Source of the DNA: Clostridiales bacterium
GTDB lineage: Bacteria > Bacillota > Clostridia > Oscillospirales > CAG-272
NCBI GenBank assembly: GCA_022791685.1
Contig: JAAVZO010000021.1
Span: 93,716-157,715, forward strand
Direction: 5' to 3'
DNA: 64,000 nt
The notes beneath the pieces are model-generated. The model had not been told where the DNA came from, ran no database searches, and saw only the letters and a program-made list of their open reading frames with translations. Positions within the stretch are counted from its first letter, which is position 1; every line of letters begins with the position of its first letter. Positions 4,272 through 14,782 of the stretch are shown one piece after another. The position numbers and the translations under genes were made by a program.

Positions 4272-4919
4272 TTAATTTTCGATTTTATTATGTGCGCAGA
4301 GATCGGATATTGGACATTCACCGCATTTTGGTGCGCGCGCTGTGCAGACATCACGTCCGAAATTTACGATACGGTGGCAGAAATCCGACTGCTTTTCAGG
4401 AGCAATTATTTTGACAAGAATACGCTCGATCTTGACCGGATCCTTCAGGCTCTCAGGATAAAAGCCGAGCCGTCCACATATACGTATGCAGTGCGTATCT
4501 GTAACGATTGCCGGTTTTTTATAAACGTCGCCAAGCAACAGATTCGCTATTTTGCGTCCCACTCCCGGCAGTGTCAGCAGCTCGTCCATTGTATCAGGCA
4601 GTCGTCCTCCAAAGTTTTCGATCAGCATTTTGCAGGAGTCCTTGATATTCTTTGCCTTGACCTTGTAAAGTCCGCATGGACGAACGATTTCTTCAAGCTC
4701 AGTAAGTTCACAATCGGCTATTGATTCAAGAGTAGGGAAGCGCGTGAACAGCTCGCGGCAGACGATATTTACACGAGCGTCTGTACATTGAGCTGACAGT
4801 CTTCCCATTATCAGCAGCTTCCAAGCATCCCCTTCATATTCAAGGGCACAAACAGCTTCAGGGTATATTTCTTCAAGTCTCGCTACAAGCTCAGCAGCGA
4901 TATTATTATCAATTGGCAT
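4272..4919 (-). CDS. nth: Endonuclease III
   Basis: LSAQCTD, HhH LPGVGRKIAN, DTH, CxxxxxxCxxCxxxxxC [4Fe-4S] motif. Confidence 0.95.
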   Translation of the reverse strand: MPIDNNIAAELVARLEEIYPEAVCALEYEGDAWKLLIMGRLSAQCTDARVNIVCRELFTRFPTLESIADCELTELEEIVRPCGLYKVKAKNIKDSCKMLIENFGGRLPDTMDELLTLPGVGRKIANLLLGDVYKKPAIVTDTHCIRICGRLGFYPESLKDPVKIERILVKIIAPEKQSDFCHRIVNFGRDVCTARAPKCGECPISDLCAHNKIEN

Positions 4920-9416: not shown

Positions 9417-10829
9417 ATGCCAAATATGTCAAATAAAAAGAACCCCATGCCCTCTCAGGAACCTGAGGTTCGTGCTCATAATTTTAAAGAAGTTGCGACC
9501 GGCTACAGTGAAGCGGCTGCACTTGACGAGGCTATGCGCTGCCTTAACTGCAAGCATATGCCATGTGTATCGGGATGTCCTGTAAATATTCACATTCCCG
9601 AATTTATCGAGAAAGTACGTGAGGGCGATTTTGAAGGTGCTTATCAGATCATAAGCAAAACATCGTCTCTTCCGGCGGTCTGTGGACGTGTATGCCCTCA
9701 GGAGACACAGTGTGAAGCTAAGTGTGTGCGCGGAATCAAGGGCGAGCCTGTAGGTATCGGTCGTCTCGAGCGCTTTGTTGCTGACTGGCACAATGCACAT
9801 TCTAACGAAGCGCCCAAATGTGAGCCGTCTAACGGTCACAAGGTAGCTGTTGTCGGCTCTGGTCCTTCTGGCCTTACCTGTGCTGGTGACCTTGCTAAGA
9901 AGGGCTACAAGGTAACTGTATTTGAAGCACTCCATACAGCTGGCGGTGTACTTGTTTATGGTATCCCAGAATTCCGTCTTCCTAAGGATATCGTTAAGAA
10001 GGAAGTTGAAAATCTGAAGGCTATGGGCGTTGATGTTGAGACAAATATAGTTATTGGAAAGACTCTGACTGTAGACGAGCTGTTCGAGAACGGCTATGAA
10101 GCAGTATTCATCGGCTCTGGAGCAGGACTTCCGAACTTCATGAATATCCCGGGTGAGAGCCTCAAGGGCGTATACTCCGCTAACGAGTTCCTTACAAGAA
10201 GCAATCTTATGAAAGCGTATATCGATTCTCCGGTAACTCCTATCTCGAAGGGCGGCAAGGTAGCAGTAGTCGGCGGCGGAAACGTTGCTATGGACGCTGC
10301 GAGAACAGCGCTGAGACTCGGAGCAGAGAAGGTATATATAATTTATCGTCGTTCGATGGAAGAGCTTCCTGCTCGTCGTGAAGAGGTTGAGCACGCTATC
10401 GAAGAGGGAATCGAGTTTAAGCTGCTCAACAACCCGATAGAGATACTCGGTTATCATAATCCAGACGACCGCCGTGACCCGAAGAACGGTTGCGTAACCG
10501 GAATCAAGTGCATTCGTATGGAACTTGGTGAGCCGGACGAGCGCGGTCGCCGCCGCCCTGTACCGGTCGAGGGAAGCGAATTTGTACTCGACGTTGACAC
10601 GGTAGTAATTTCGATAGGCACATCACCGAACCCGCTTATAAAGACTACGACTGAGGGACTTGAGGTCAACAAGCACGGCGGAATAATAGTTGAGGAGAAT
10701 ACCGGAGCGACCACTCGCGAGGGCGTATACGCCGGCGGTGACGCTGTTACAGGCGCAGCGACGGTTATTTCCGCGATGGGTGCAGGTAAGGTTGCCGCAA
10801 AGGCGATCGACGAGCATTTGTCGAAATAA
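9417..10829 (+). CDS. nfnB: NfnB / glutamate synthase small-subunit-like flavoprotein (often annotated gltA)
   Basis: RCLNC...C...CP, CGRVCPQETQCE, GSGPSG, YGIPEFRLPK, GGGNVAMD, GGDAVTG. Confidence 0.88.
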   Translation: MPNMSNKKNPMPSQEPEVRAHNFKEVATGYSEAAALDEAMRCLNCKHMPCVSGCPVNIHIPEFIEKVREGDFEGAYQIISKTSSLPAVCGRVCPQETQCEAKCVRGIKGEPVGIGRLERFVADWHNAHSNEAPKCEPSNGHKVAVVGSGPSGLTCAGDLAKKGYKVTVFEALHTAGGVLVYGIPEFRLPKDIVKKEVENLKAMGVDVETNIVIGKTLTVDELFENGYEAVFIGSGAGLPNFMNIPGESLKGVYSANEFLTRSNLMKAYIDSPVTPISKGGKVAVVGGGNVAMDAARTALRLGAEKVYIIYRRSMEELPARREEVEHAIEEGIEFKLLNNPIEILGYHNPDDRRDPKNGCVTGIKCIRMELGEPDERGRRRPVPVEGSEFVLDVDTVVISIGTSPNPLIKTTTEGLEVNKHGGIIVEENTGATTREGVYAGGDAVTGAATVISAMGAGKVAAKAIDEHLSK

Positions 10830-10848
10830 GCTGAAACAGCGATAATAT

Positions 10849-10881
10849 AAAAAACGAGAGCAAAATTTGCTCTCGTTTTTT
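10849..10881. terminator. Bidirectional intrinsic terminator
   Basis: AAAAAACGAGAGCAAA / TTTGCTCTCGTTTTTT between nfnB and the paralog array. Confidence 0.85.
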
Positions 10882-10890
10882 GCGTGGTCA

Positions 10891-11523
10891 TCACTCGTCA
10901 GTCTGCCAGTAATCGTAAAGAATTGCTTTGGTGTAGCCATAACTGTCGATAGTGTTTATTCCTAACTCTTCAAGTTCTTCAGCCGTTAAATAAAATCCGT
11001 CATAATTTATCCACTGCGTACAGTTTACAAAGCGTATCTCTGCCTGCGCGATTAGTCGGTCTGGGTAGGTCTGGTCATACACCGAAACAAGCAGCGCGCT
11101 TTCATATATTTAACGTTTGGTATTTTTATATTCGAAATTTTTCGGTATGTGCATATACACGTCGCATAAGGTTTCTGCCTTTTCGCTCATATGCTGATAG
11201 TCCGAACAGGTGCGAAATTCGTGCATTTCTTTGAATGCTTCCTGCTCCGTATTGTTGTTCACACTTTCGTACCATTGTGCGTCGACTCCGAGCGCGAGCT
11301 TATAATTATTATGCGGCTTTTCAACTACTTCAAGTTCAGGAAAGGTCAAGTAATTATCCTCCGGCAATCCGGTAAGCAGACGCACATTGCCGCTCGTACA
11401 ATCGTCAGTGCATATTGCTGCGATCATTCCATCCGCTTCGGCTATGAAAAAGGTAAGCGAGTTCATATCTATGACTGATATGGAAAGGTATATTAGCAGA
11501 TATTTTTTAAGCAGTGGTTTCAT
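10891..11523 (-). pseudogene. Paralog copy 3 of tandem membrane-anchored hypothetical family, disrupted
   Basis: Track ORFs 11110-11535 and 10891-11082 are in frame, split by TAA (11110-11112) where copy 2 has Tyr; 318 nt shorter than copy 2. Confidence 0.88.
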
Positions 11524-11528
11524 AAATT

Positions 11529-12479
11529 TCACCATTCGTCAACTTGCCAGTAGTCGTACAGGACAGCTTCGGTGTAGCTGTAATTGTCTAGTGTGTTGAT
11601 TCCTAATTCTTCGAGAAGCTCCGGATAAACACCATATCCATGTTCGTCCCTCGTCCAGTCAGTGTAATTGACAAAGCAGATCTCCGCCTGTGCGAGAATG
11701 TGGCCCGGTCTTGCAGGATCATATACTGACACAAGTACTGCTGATTCAAAAATATATCGATGTATACCGCTGTATTCTGCAAGATACGGCATATCTAAAA
11801 CGTCGAATATACTCTGCGAATATGTCCTTGAATGCGTATCATCCTTGCAGGCTTTCAGCACGTGCGACGATGTGAATACTTCATCTATGCTAATATCGTG
11901 CAATGTATTACCATAATGATGTGAATCTACGCCAAACATTAGCTTGTGACTGCCGCGTGCTACAGGGTCGCCGTGATAATCCATTTTAGGCAGCACAAGA
12001 TAATTATCCTCCGGAACACCATACAGAATTCGCAGATTTCCATGTGCATTTTCATTCGTAACAACTGCCTCTATCATTCCCTCAGCTTCTGCGACGAAAA
12101 ATGCAAACTTTCCTACACTGGTTACCATGTAAGTTATATTTCCATAATCTCCAAAATATTCGTCGTATCTATTATATTCGTTGAATTCGCCTTTTTTGAT
12201 TTTGGGTCCTACACGGATAACCTCACCCTTCTTCATCTCGGTAAGACGGGTGTATTGCTCGGTTTGGTCGCTGTTCCATACGTTTTCCCAAGCATAAATT
12301 TTCAGCAGATATTCATCGTATTCGTTGACCTCATCTTCCGGCATAGCAAACAAAATCTGGTCGCCAGGCTTCATTTGATCGGCAAGGTCACAAACTGCGA
12401 ATGTTGCTGTGATTACAAGCGCGATTCCGAATATGGCGGAAAGGTAGATTAGCAAGTATTTTTTAAGTAGCGGTTTCAT
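11529..12479 (-). CDS. Paralog copy 2, N-terminally anchored hypothetical protein
   Basis: MKPLLKKYLLIYLS + hydrophobic helix; C-terminal LGIN..D.YSYTEAVLYDYWQ shared with copies 1 and 3. Confidence 0.85.
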   Translation of the reverse strand: MKPLLKKYLLIYLSAIFGIALVITATFAVCDLADQMKPGDQILFAMPEDEVNEYDEYLLKIYAWENVWNSDQTEQYTRLTEMKKGEVIRVGPKIKKGEFNEYNRYDEYFGDYGNITYMVTSVGKFAFFVAEAEGMIEAVVTNENAHGNLRILYGVPEDNYLVLPKMDYHGDPVARGSHKLMFGVDSHHYGNTLHDISIDEVFTSSHVLKACKDDTHSRTYSQSIFDVLDMPYLAEYSGIHRYIFESAVLVSVYDPARPGHILAQAEICFVNYTDWTRDEHGYGVYPELLEELGINTLDNYSYTEAVLYDYWQVDEW

Positions 12480-12484
12480 AGATT

Positions 12485-13402
12485 TCACCATTCTTCAGTT
12501 TGCCAGTAATCGTATAAAACGGCTTCGGTGTAGCCGTAGCTGTCGGGGATGTTTATTCCTAACGTATCGAGTGTATCCGGACCTATAACTGATGACAAAT
12601 AGCTGCCTTCATCGCTTTTTTTATCTATTTGCCATGCTGAGTACATATAAATTCGAATCTCTGCTTTTGCAATCAGTCTTTCTGCATTATTTAAATCATA
12701 CATAGATATGAAAAGTAAACGTTCCTCAACGCAGCGATAGTATGACGTGCCATCCTCACCTCTTATATCATAAGCATCGCTTAAACGCTGCTTATACTCA
12801 GAATTGCGCATTTTCTCATTGACTTCAACTGAAATATCGCGGTTGCTTTTTGCTATATAGTCATTACCTATACGCCTTTTAGGATATGGATTGAGCAGCA
12901 AACTATATCGGCTTCGAGGAATCATATCAGGAAATTCTTCAAGCACGGCATCAGAAAATCCAGTTCCTGGTTTTCCATATGGAAGCCAACCGCCGGAATA
13001 TTCTGCCTCGATTTCTCCATCGCCTTCAGCAATAAAAACAGAACTCTCTTTAAACATTATATCATTCGCTGGATGGTTAAGGATATTATCGTATCTTAAA
13101 TACTCCCCAAAATCCATTACAGAATGGAGGGTACCTACTCGAATTGGCTCGCCGAGCTCCATTTCAACCTTAGCTATACTTTGCTCAGCCTGGTCATCAT
13201 TCCAACTACAACTCCACGCGTATAACTTTAAAATATGATTCGCTTGATTTACCTTTTCATCTCGAACTTCAAATAAAATCTGATTGCCAGGCTTCATACG
13301 ATTCACAAGATCTCCAACTACAAATGCAATTGTAATTGCAAGCAAAACACAAATTACAGCAGCAAAGTAAATTATTAGATATTTTTTAAGTAGTTGTTTC
13401 AT
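12485..13402 (-). CDS. Paralog copy 1, N-terminally anchored hypothetical protein
   Basis: MKQLLKKYLIIYF + hydrophobic helix, MKPGNQILF, YGYTEAVLYDYWQTEEW. Confidence 0.85.
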   Translation of the reverse strand: MKQLLKKYLIIYFAAVICVLLAITIAFVVGDLVNRMKPGNQILFEVRDEKVNQANHILKLYAWSCSWNDDQAEQSIAKVEMELGEPIRVGTLHSVMDFGEYLRYDNILNHPANDIMFKESSVFIAEGDGEIEAEYSGGWLPYGKPGTGFSDAVLEEFPDMIPRSRYSLLLNPYPKRRIGNDYIAKSNRDISVEVNEKMRNSEYKQRLSDAYDIRGEDGTSYYRCVEERLLFISMYDLNNAERLIAKAEIRIYMYSAWQIDKKSDEGSYLSSVIGPDTLDTLGINIPDSYGYTEAVLYDYWQTEEW

Positions 13403-13415
13403 ACAATTTAGTCAC

Positions 13416-13450
13416 ATATAGCCGACAGAAATATTTCCGTCGGCTATATA
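13416..13450 (-). terminator. Stem-loop between the secreted protein and the paralog array
   Basis: ATATAGCCGACAGAAA / TTTCCGTCGGCTATAT; no clear U-tract on the coding strand. Confidence 0.5.
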
Positions 13451-13471
13451 TTTTAAAATCAAAGCTTACGG

Positions 13472-13945
13472 CTAGCAATATAGGTAATTCCCTGTAGCAT
13501 ATCCGCTGGCAGGGCATTCCCATCTGTGCATACTTATGCCGCCTTTACAACCATCATCAATACACACAAATCGTCCCTTACCGTGTGAAATATTCGTTAC
13601 TGTCAATTCTCCAGTATGATCATGACCATTAAACGTATAATATCTCGACCAATCATATTCTCCCCAAGATGATTCAATGTTATTATGAGTACCGTATCCA
13701 TGCTGGATATATGTTCCATCAACATTTCCCGGTGAGAAATAGCATCTCTTGTCTGCTGCAAGAGATAAAGTCCCCACAATAGTCGACGACTGAAGCGACG
13801 GAATCGTGTACGTCAGCACTAAGCCATCGAGACTGCCGTGATCTCCAGGGCAGCAGTCCTCATGAGCCAGGGTCGGAAGTGCGAAGCTGCCTACAATCCC
13901 TGCTGTAAGAGTAGCGGACAGGATAAGCGAAAAGATTTTTTTCAT
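13472..13945 (-). CDS. Secreted Cys/His-rich hypothetical protein
   Basis: Sec signal MKKIFSLILSATLTAGIVGSFALPTLA; 7 Cys and several His in the mature part; ends in Cys. Confidence 0.8.
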   Translation of the reverse strand: MKKIFSLILSATLTAGIVGSFALPTLAHEDCCPGDHGSLDGLVLTYTIPSLQSSTIVGTLSLAADKRCYFSPGNVDGTYIQHGYGTHNNIESSWGEYDWSRYYTFNGHDHTGELTVTNISHGKGRFVCIDDGCKGGISMHRWECPASGYATGNYLYC

Positions 13946-14173
13946 AACAATTTTCTGTTCGTTGCCTCAGGTTTCGTCTGACGCTGTTGAGACACACTTT
14001 CACAGCGTATGGATACAGCTCTTTTTATCCATTATATGTCAGTATTCATGCAGAGTTACATTCGTACTAACACATCAGACTATTGCAATTTATGTAAAGC
14101 CTTGCAATCAGCTATACATCAATAAGGAGAAATATTCTTTTCTTTTCAGCATAACTTTATTCTATCTGCATAT

Positions 14174-14202
14174 ATAATACCATATACAGCACTATTTGTC
14201 AA
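14174..14202 (-). promoter_or_regulatory. Candidate sigma-A promoter for the island
   Basis: Minus strand TTGACA-17-TATTAT with extended TG. Confidence 0.55.
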
Positions 14203-14359
14203 CAGTTTTAGCTAATATATTCTATCTTCGTCGATATAGCTATATGTAGCATATCGATTTTGTATCATATCACTAAGCGAAAATGTAAAATCAAAAAAGA
14301 CATCGAGCTATGCTCAATGCCTTTCAATTGCTCTATATCAGTAGCGCTATTTTGCTACA

Positions 14360-14782
14360 TTATCCTCTGCGGTTATAATCCGACTTCGGATTTACGATCT
14401 CACGCCAATCAAGTCCGCCTGCTTCAAGTGCAGTTACAAGTACTTCGGCAGTTGCTATATTCGTAGCTACCGGAATATTGTATACGTCGCACATCCTGAG
14501 AAGATTGTACTCCTCCTCGTCGAACTCTATGTCTTTTGATGTGTCACGGAAATATATCAGAAGGTCGATCTCATTATATGCCACGCGCGAGGTTATCTGC
14601 TGCGCGCCGCCATGCGCACCAGAGAGAAGTCTCTCAATTTTAAGTCCGGTTGCCTCTGCTATATATTTTCCAGTAATTCCCGTTGCACAGAGGTTGTGTT
14701 TGCAGAGTATTCCGCAGTAAGCTATGCAGAACTGCGTCATAAGCTCTTTCTTTTTGTCATCCGCAATGATTGCGATTTCCAT
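14360..14782 (-). CDS. mgsA: Methylglyoxal synthase-like protein
   Basis: IAIIA.D.KK, ATG.TG, SG..GG.QQI, LLRMCDVYNIPVATNIATAE; catalytic residues appear altered. Confidence 0.8.
   Translation of the reverse strand: MEIAIIADDKKKELMTQFCIAYCGILCKHNLCATGITGKYIAEATGLKIERLLSGAHGGAQQITSRVAYNEIDLLIYFRDTSKDIEFDEEEYNLLRMCDVYNIPVATNIATAEVLVTALEAGGLDWREIVNPKSDYNRRG

Follow-up and report, generated by a model that had tools for sequence, protein, structure and literature searches.

An insertion of 3545 bp (positions 10815-14359) separates an nfnB/gltD-like gene from mgsA in the genome of a Clostridiales bacterium of the lineage CAG-272 (assembly GCA_022791685.1, contig JAAVZO010000021.1, positions 93,716-157,715 of the forward strand); this 64,000-nt stretch is referred to throughout as the window, and the insertion as the island. 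The island is a compact module of four genes in 3.5 kb behind one predicted promoter. The first gene encodes a small secreted protein rich in cysteine and histidine, and is followed by three related genes, the paralogs A, B and C, of which A and B are predicted to encode membrane-anchored proteins with a beta-rich ectodomain and C is a pseudogene. Both protein families are unnamed and, as far as sequence comparison goes, without known relatives. The linkage of the secreted gene with the paralogs is conserved across deep divergence, and this linkage, like the variation of the paralogs among related genomes, favours the interpretation offered below, in which the island would encode an antibacterial effector and its surface-displayed immunity proteins.

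Organisation of the island

An earlier reading of this DNA, made from its letters alone (the sequence-only reading), had described an exported 157-residue gene product, a stem-loop and three head-to-tail paralogs. Open reading frame (ORF) calls and folding of the hairpin uphold this layout (Table 1), and the order and kinship of the three paralogs stand, except that the third is not an intact gene. The 157-residue protein has a signal sequence that, judged by eye rather than by a predictor, has the classical n-h-c composition (MKK, then IFSLILSATLTAGIVGSFAL, then PTLA, with cleavage before HE), and the mature product of 130 residues contains 7 Cys and 8 His, as expected of the Sec-exported, Cys/His-rich protein that had been proposed. 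The positions C68, H87, N88, H110, T111, D131, C133, G135 and H140 are invariant between this protein and its relatives. The His, Asp and Cys among them are suggestive of metal binding, for which the three His and the single Asp may serve as a lead only. The motif HxH is present in two of the three secreted proteins now known, while HxxxD falls out of aligned columns. LAS/M23 zinc peptidases carry HxxxD followed by HxH, and cupins carry HxH..E followed by a further His; both assignments were rejected, there being no Pfam match and HxxxD not being in register, and a histidine-brace reading of the His motifs was dropped for want of a model match.

Paralogs A, B and C share the start MK(P/Q)LLKKYL, the motif F(I/V)AE..G.I.A and the end LGIN..D.Y.YT.A.LYDYWQ, all of which had been picked out before and recur in the alignment. 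The remark that the paralogs differ strongly in between is equally sound: pairwise nucleotide identity is 0.67-0.86 over the first 30 codons and 0.72-0.74 over the last 30, and 0.36-0.57 in the centre. An AlphaFold2 model of B (mean per-residue confidence, pLDDT, 70; predicted template-modelling score, pTM, 0.66) shows residues 3-36 as a helix and, after it, a domain that is beta almost throughout. By the positive-inside rule, the basic N-terminus MKPLLKK and this helix point to a type II protein with an outward-facing ectodomain; the N-terminus is short in the paralogs, and they possess no cytoplasmic domain. Copy C is a pseudogene: its two ORFs (11110-11535 and 10891-11082) are a single frame cut by an in-frame TAA at 11110-11112, and it has lost alignment columns 13-115, some 100 residues that comprise the membrane helix together with the first beta segment.

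Table 1. Features of the island and its flanks, in window positions.
Feature	Position	Strand	Basis or remark
157-aa Sec-type secreted Cys/His-rich protein gene	13472-13945	-	ORF call
Paralog A, 305 aa, N-terminal membrane anchor and beta-rich ectodomain	12485-13402	-	Nearest relative P0003
Paralog B, 316 aa when counted from its MKPLL start (12479)	11529..12479	-	ORF 11529-12491 = 320 aa; nearest relatives copy C and P0002
Paralog C, pseudogene	10891..11523	-	Helix deletion and in-frame TAA
Promoter-like site, SigA/sigma-70 type, TTGACA-17-TATTAT with TG	14174..14202	-	11/12 consensus matches; predicted function
Leader of ~220 nt upstream of secreted gene	13946..14173	-	Fold z -2.5; no Rfam match
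Strong hairpin without T tract, gap between secreted gene and copy A	13416-13449	-	Free energy -27.9 kcal/mol, z -6.6
Stem-loop flanked by A and T runs, gap between nfnB-like gene and copy C	10849..10882 (approximate)	.	Read by eye; not listed by pattern scan
nfnB/gltD-like flank gene (Fer4_20 and Pyr_redox_2 domains)	9417-10829		Convergent to the array
mgsA flank gene (MGS domain)	14360-14782		Pfam match
mgsA terminator	14325-14295		Pattern scan

That the island is an insertion follows from comparison with G148, one of two other genomes of the same genus (G148 and G071; the genome of the window is G000), in which the nfnB-mgsA region is syntenic at approximately 79-80% DNA identity, the gap between the two genes is 207 bp as opposed to 3545 bp here, and the island is absent. 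This empty site, and the low GC content of the island (0.403 compared to 0.459 for the genome, a value equally low in 4.8% of 2341 segments of 3.5 kb), agree with its earlier description as an island between nfnB and mgsA. The junction may be a hotspot of variable content. There are no prophage genes beside the island in the window, and Rfam has no match within it at an expectation value (E) of up to 1. At the mgsA/nfnB junction of G071 a different ORF of 217 residues follows mgsA (L030 108-761, contig C32; L033 1-345), and both contigs end there.

The promoter-like site, just past the mgsA terminator, is the best of 13 such sites in the region, a number that is not in excess of the 10.7 +/- 2.9 found in shuffles; it is close to consensus, carries the TG element and is the site that the sequence-only reading had named as the island's own promoter, a function that it would plausibly serve. 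A Shine-Dalgarno-like 4-mer at -20 to -4, present in 65% (921/1413) of the genome's long ORFs, is found neither for the secreted gene (13946-13967) nor for copy A (13403-13424). By eye, the first partner genes of two related loci described below, L034 and L025, have no obvious Shine-Dalgarno sequence either. Copies B and C start 5 nt past the preceding stop codon, and GGTG overlaps that stop. The stem-loop beyond copy C is likely to be a bidirectional terminator that ends the unit, and we infer from the sequence that the island is co-transcribed as one transcription unit.

Two unnamed protein families and their conserved linkage

First searches with the 157-residue protein matched nothing except itself. 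When part of the paralog alignment was used to scan genomes representative of species, it reached two contigs, L034 and L035, of one Clostridia metagenome-assembled genome (MAG). On L034 a signal-peptide protein of 170 residues (P0114) is encoded directly upstream of two tandem members of the paralog family at the contig end, and a third stands at the beginning of a different contig from that MAG. P0114 is 30% identical to the 157-residue protein over 158 columns (BLASTP E 6e-13), shares with it the motifs NGH.HTGELT and C.GG...H, and is its sole sure homolog. A candidate relative is provided by a signal-peptide protein of 128 residues with 7 Cys, identical in L025, a metagenome contig, and in G071, in both of which it is followed by a membrane-anchored protein of 230 residues; its kinship is argued from 16 alignment columns invariant across the three secreted proteins. 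A Gp49-like (DUF891) gene and an HTH_3 gene, together a toxin-antitoxin-like pair, lie at 1468-2110 of L034, approximately 2.4 kb upstream of the module.

The likeness of these loci extends beyond their coding sequences. A block of 24 nt in the leader (13957-13980, minus strand) is identical at 21 positions to the leader of L034 (around 4449-4472) and is unique in the genome, an agreement that contrasts with the 30% identity of the secreted proteins of the two loci; it may act as an operator or in the control of translation. The hairpin that follows the secreted gene, which none of 200 shuffles folded equally well, is a candidate partial terminator or mRNA-stabilising stem. In the window, L034 and L025 alike a strong hairpin without a T tract lies directly 3' of the secreted gene, a position that fits high expression of an effector and low expression of its partner. 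A functional link of some kind between the secreted and paralog families is, in our estimation, probable.

Relatives of the secreted protein beyond these loci are scarce. A profile of the three secreted proteins gave three matches from 1959 candidates among 5.8 billion clusters, all of them the rows of the query itself, in a search that depends on shared 5-residue words and can miss relatives as divergent as these. By genome, the profile identifies one copy in G000 and the single 128-residue gene in G071, with weak matches in three other genera (E 4e-5 to 6e-4); the one that was inspected proved to be the signal peptide of a dockerin-bearing protein and was discarded. Two weak single-protein matches in the locus searches (E 0.004-0.005) cover 44 residues within frames of 710-733 residues. 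At E up to 10, none of the three secreted proteins matches a Pfam family. For the protein of the window, Pfam, NCBIfam, PADLOC and PHROGs returned chance or signal-peptide matches alone, a PDB profile search returned a single match (E 0.89) on the signal region, and the best score in the protein atlas was 0.86, under the 0.9 at which a match is counted as a lead.

The paralog family is better populated and no better known. Paralogs A and B show the features that define it, namely a profile match (E of about 1e-122 to 1e-124), an N-terminal anchor, a length of about 270-350 residues and the end ...YTEAVLYDYWQ. A search of 1.84 billion proteins yields 65 representatives with E no higher than 1e-3, 24 of them with E no higher than 1e-30, and a word-indexed search of 5.8 billion found four clusters; 'hypothetical protein' is the only name attached to any of these in the sources. 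Pfam and NCBIfam contain nothing for A, B or C, and comparison of 49 family members with Pfam produced two single-member chance matches only (E 0.006-0.007). PADLOC, PHROGs and the protein atlas gave no real or usable match, Foldseek found no match to the paralog model in PDB or BFVD at E up to 0.001, and the best score in the VIA wide fold search (Z 5.6, to generic immunoglobulin-like sandwiches) lies under the Z of 7-8 typical of unmatched models. Nothing was recovered by tblastn from 50,697 phage and 72,556 plasmid records, and a scan of genome contigs with one family alignment (A2) confirmed no relatives among 319 pattern matches. Hidden Markov model and Foldseek searches had been suggested with the question of whether either protein belongs to a known family; both fall outside the families of Pfam, NCBIfam, PADLOC, PHROGs and PDB, and the fold searches with the paralog are likewise negative. 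The distribution of the paralog family is narrow. Three of 201 genomes of the taxonomic family contain it, these being G000 and both of the other genomes of the genus (2/2), compared to 0 of 198 genomes from other genera, and none of 400 other genomes sampled from the order has a match. G000 itself has seven paralog loci: the array of three, to which contigs C3 and C23 add one copy each and C45 a further two.

Variation of the paralogs between genomes

We estimated a maximum-likelihood tree from 47 rows, to which the split copy of G148 and the 230-residue protein (see below) do not belong. A single clade of 21 rows (ultrafast bootstrap 98, SH-aLRT 95) unites the tree's members that adjoin secreted genes, namely the three copies of the window, the pair from L034 and P0012, which is presumed to stand for the member on L025, while the scattered copies of G000, G148 and G071 fall outside this array clade. 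Within it, A pairs with P0003 (100/98), and B with C (100/97) and then with P0002 (100/99); A, B/C and the P0004 type represent old sub-lineages whose combination changes from array to array. Members of both clusters, P0003 and P0004, occur on contigs of identical length (4890, 11454 and 18390 nt), and one P0004-type protein has the same overlapping start as copy B, which suggests that an A-type gene is probably followed by another type in tandem elsewhere. A distant paralog clade (10 of 47 rows, support 100/100) is distinguished by a longer cytoplasmic N-terminus. Its loci include L021 1333-2181, L022 1444-2394 (contig C45 of G000), L027 5070-7292 and L028 5006-6010, and two of the distant-clade loci adjoin regulators, AraC-type by eye.

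Close relatives differ in their complement of paralogs. Compared with G071, L025 has an extra segment, containing a family member of 352 residues, an ABC-2-like membrane protein of 389 residues and two small ORFs, which lies between the 230-residue gene and a convergent SLH/transglutaminase-like gene that it has in common with G071. The 389-residue protein (L025 4567-5736) is multi-pass and absent from G071, and it resembles ABC2_membrane_3 weakly, at an E of 3.6e-4 that falls short of the cut-off. In G148 one family member is split over two overlapping frames of 185 and 145 residues (L026 4616-5592, contig C101); it lacks a secreted neighbour and is one copy that has been either frameshifted or misassembled. 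The sequence-only reading had proposed comparing related genomes for co-occurrence of homologs and variation in copy number, and both are seen: P0114 stands upstream of tandem family members, L025 and G071 differ by one paralog, and G148 is without the island.

A proposed effector with surface immunity, and other explanations

We regard an effector/immunity module as the best-supported reading of the island, not an established one, and would give it a probability of about 0.4. The small Sec-exported Cys/His-rich protein, made in excess, would be the first component, an antibacterial effector (that is, a protein bacteriocin) acting outside the membrane. The paralogs would be co-transcribed, N-terminally membrane-anchored proteins with beta-rich ectodomains facing the cell wall zone, with A as the cognate surface immunity protein of the adjacent effector, B as an extra, non-cognate immunity and C as a decaying orphan. 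A Sec-exported toxin of the wall zone would expose its producer on the way out, so that a co-transcribed surface immunity gene would be necessary. The reading is favoured because of the conserved linkage, the hairpins, the array clade, an architecture like that of TipC (see below) and the variation from genome to genome. In the form in which it was first put forward, the effector/immunity proposal is supported in part: the novelty of the proteins, their conserved pairing and the variation in copy number agree with it, while a recognisable toxin domain and a partner at most family loci did not emerge. A more specific scenario is doubtful, in which the module would mediate a hitherto unknown kind of contact-independent antagonism among strictly anaerobic gut Clostridia through a disulfide- and metal-stabilised enzyme-toxin of 130 residues with a new fold, active in the wall zone and countered by tethered immunity proteins, also of a new fold, in shuffled arrays.

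Several observations weigh against an effector and its immunity proteins. Searches of Pfam, NCBIfam, PDB and the protein atlas reveal no domain of a toxin, peptidase or bacteriocin in the secreted protein, and its single-sequence AlphaFold2 model is unusable (pLDDT 41.8). The homology of the 128-residue protein is a candidate one, given BLASTP E values of 0.72 and 0.24 against the other two secreted proteins and a profile score that arises by construction; the 230-residue protein beside it matches the paralog profile weakly (hhalign probability 55%, E 1.2e-4) and is a possible member of that family. Upstream DNA could be read for 11 paralog-family loci, of which 3 are preceded by a small exported gene and 8 lack a secreted partner; the partnerless loci, where the ORF lists had lower limits of 50-100 residues, are singletons or one pair beside unrelated genes, e.g. 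an esterase or MgtC. G148 has members of the paralog family and no match to the secreted profile. The sample is very small, with two sure loci.

The same linkage and hairpin could also be conserved in a pair that has nothing to do with antagonism, the secreted protein being a small enzyme, or a factor that binds metal or a ligand, which the paralogs capture, tether, fold or present at the cell surface, as receptor, anchor or dedicated foldase. The invariance of H87, H110, D131, C133 and H140, the His at the mature N-terminus of two of the three members and the failure to find a toxin domain all accord with such a role, as does the lack of a cytoplasmic domain in the paralogs, which are therefore limited to binding. 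Divergent tandem paralogs, a decaying copy, gain and loss between strains and a very narrow distribution are, however, less usual in nutrient capture than in conflict systems, and there is no conserved transporter, the ABC-2-like permease being confined to L025 and under the Pfam cut-off; we consider this explanation rather unlikely.

An explanation without any partnership would take the paralogs for a lineage-specific, housekeeping-like or structural envelope family that happens to be duplicated here, and the secreted gene for an independent neighbour. The four scattered single family genes of G000 and the singletons and pairs of G148 and G071, all beside unrelated genes, would suit it, as would the presence of the family in G148 with no match to the secreted family. 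Yet the relatives that could be detected for the secreted protein (a sure one, and a candidate in two strains) are all encoded immediately upstream of such a membrane-anchored protein with a hairpin between them, the leader, gene order and junctions are kept at 30% protein identity, and the scattered copies fall outside the array clade, all of which makes mere proximity improbable. That the module faces phage, with paralogs that serve superinfection exclusion or defence by masking a receptor or mimicking one, and a secreted decoy or sensor, is highly improbable, for although surface display, a variable centre, copy-number change, the island position and the Gp49/HTH_3 pair 2.4 kb from the L034 module could be so construed, PADLOC and PHROGs gave no real match, tblastn of phage and plasmid records was empty and no prophage genes adjoin.

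If the effector/immunity reading is true, the island adds a toxin family and an immunity family to the few systems whose site of action is the outer face of the Gram-positive membrane, and does so from uncultured gut and rumen Clostridia, whose interbacterial weapons are poorly charted. The compactness of the module and the existence of relatives with a natural 'empty site' make it directly amenable to expression and protection assays. If that reading fails, the secreted His/Cys-rich protein and its surface tether would represent an unexplained, clade-specific envelope function.

Three kinds of known system invite comparison. Lactococcin 972 is a small, beta-rich, Sec-dependent bacteriocin made with a signal peptide and paired with membrane-associated immunity, and its gene has membrane-protein genes downstream. 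The island is similar in combining export of a small protein by signal peptide with membrane proteins encoded downstream, and differs from this type in having no Pfam bacteriocin match at E up to 10 and in a partner that is a single-pass ectodomain rather than a multi-pass transporter.

The arrays of polymorphic toxins and orphan immunity genes, such as EsaD-EsaG strings, contact-dependent inhibition (CDI) and Rhs loci, present (PMC9484751, PMC3482391, PMC3150448) an effector gene and, behind it, a series of paralogs that are not identical, with decaying copies and island-like loci that vary between strains, as seen in the window. In gene order the arrangement here fits that of polymorphic toxins (PMC3482391), in which a cognate gene immediately downstream neutralises the toxin, a role that would be a putative one for the paralogs. 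Unlike the multidomain polymorphic toxins (PMC3482391), the secreted protein is a single small domain of 130 residues with no trafficking domain or exchangeable C-terminal tip, and, unlike these arrays, the island has no toxin-tip cassettes among its paralogs and both of its families are unnamed.

By analogy, the layout of the island most closely resembles TelC-TipC of Streptococcus intermedius. As set out in two reports (PMC6193138, PMC9484751), TelC is a lipid II phosphatase toxin of the LXG class, exported by type VII secretion (T7SS), and TipC is its membrane-anchored immunity protein, with an N-terminal membrane segment and an inhibitory ectodomain; TipC is found as several paralogs in tandem, of which some do not protect, and recombination is driven by blocks conserved at the 5' and 3' ends of its genes. 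The solved structure of TipC/TipC2, cited as 6DHX in the second report (PMC9484751), is described as a crescent of three helices and a seven-stranded sheet. The 49-member profile of the paralog family has no match among all PDB chain sequences at E up to 1. Unlike TipC, the model of B (pLDDT 70) is nearly all beta; TipC is absent from the Foldseek and VIA matches listed, which does not exclude the fold. Unlike TelC, the protein of the island is a Sec-exported protein of 130 residues, and no large LXG/T7SS substrate is encoded upstream. The lack of a sequence match, the different predicted secondary structure and the lack of an LXG/T7SS toxin indicate that the island is not a member of the TelC-TipC family. 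What the two would share is a design: a membrane segment at the N-terminus of a protein whose ectodomain is predicted to occupy the wall zone, tandem paralogs downstream of an effector gene in a copy number that varies between strains, and genes whose ends are conserved around a variable centre.

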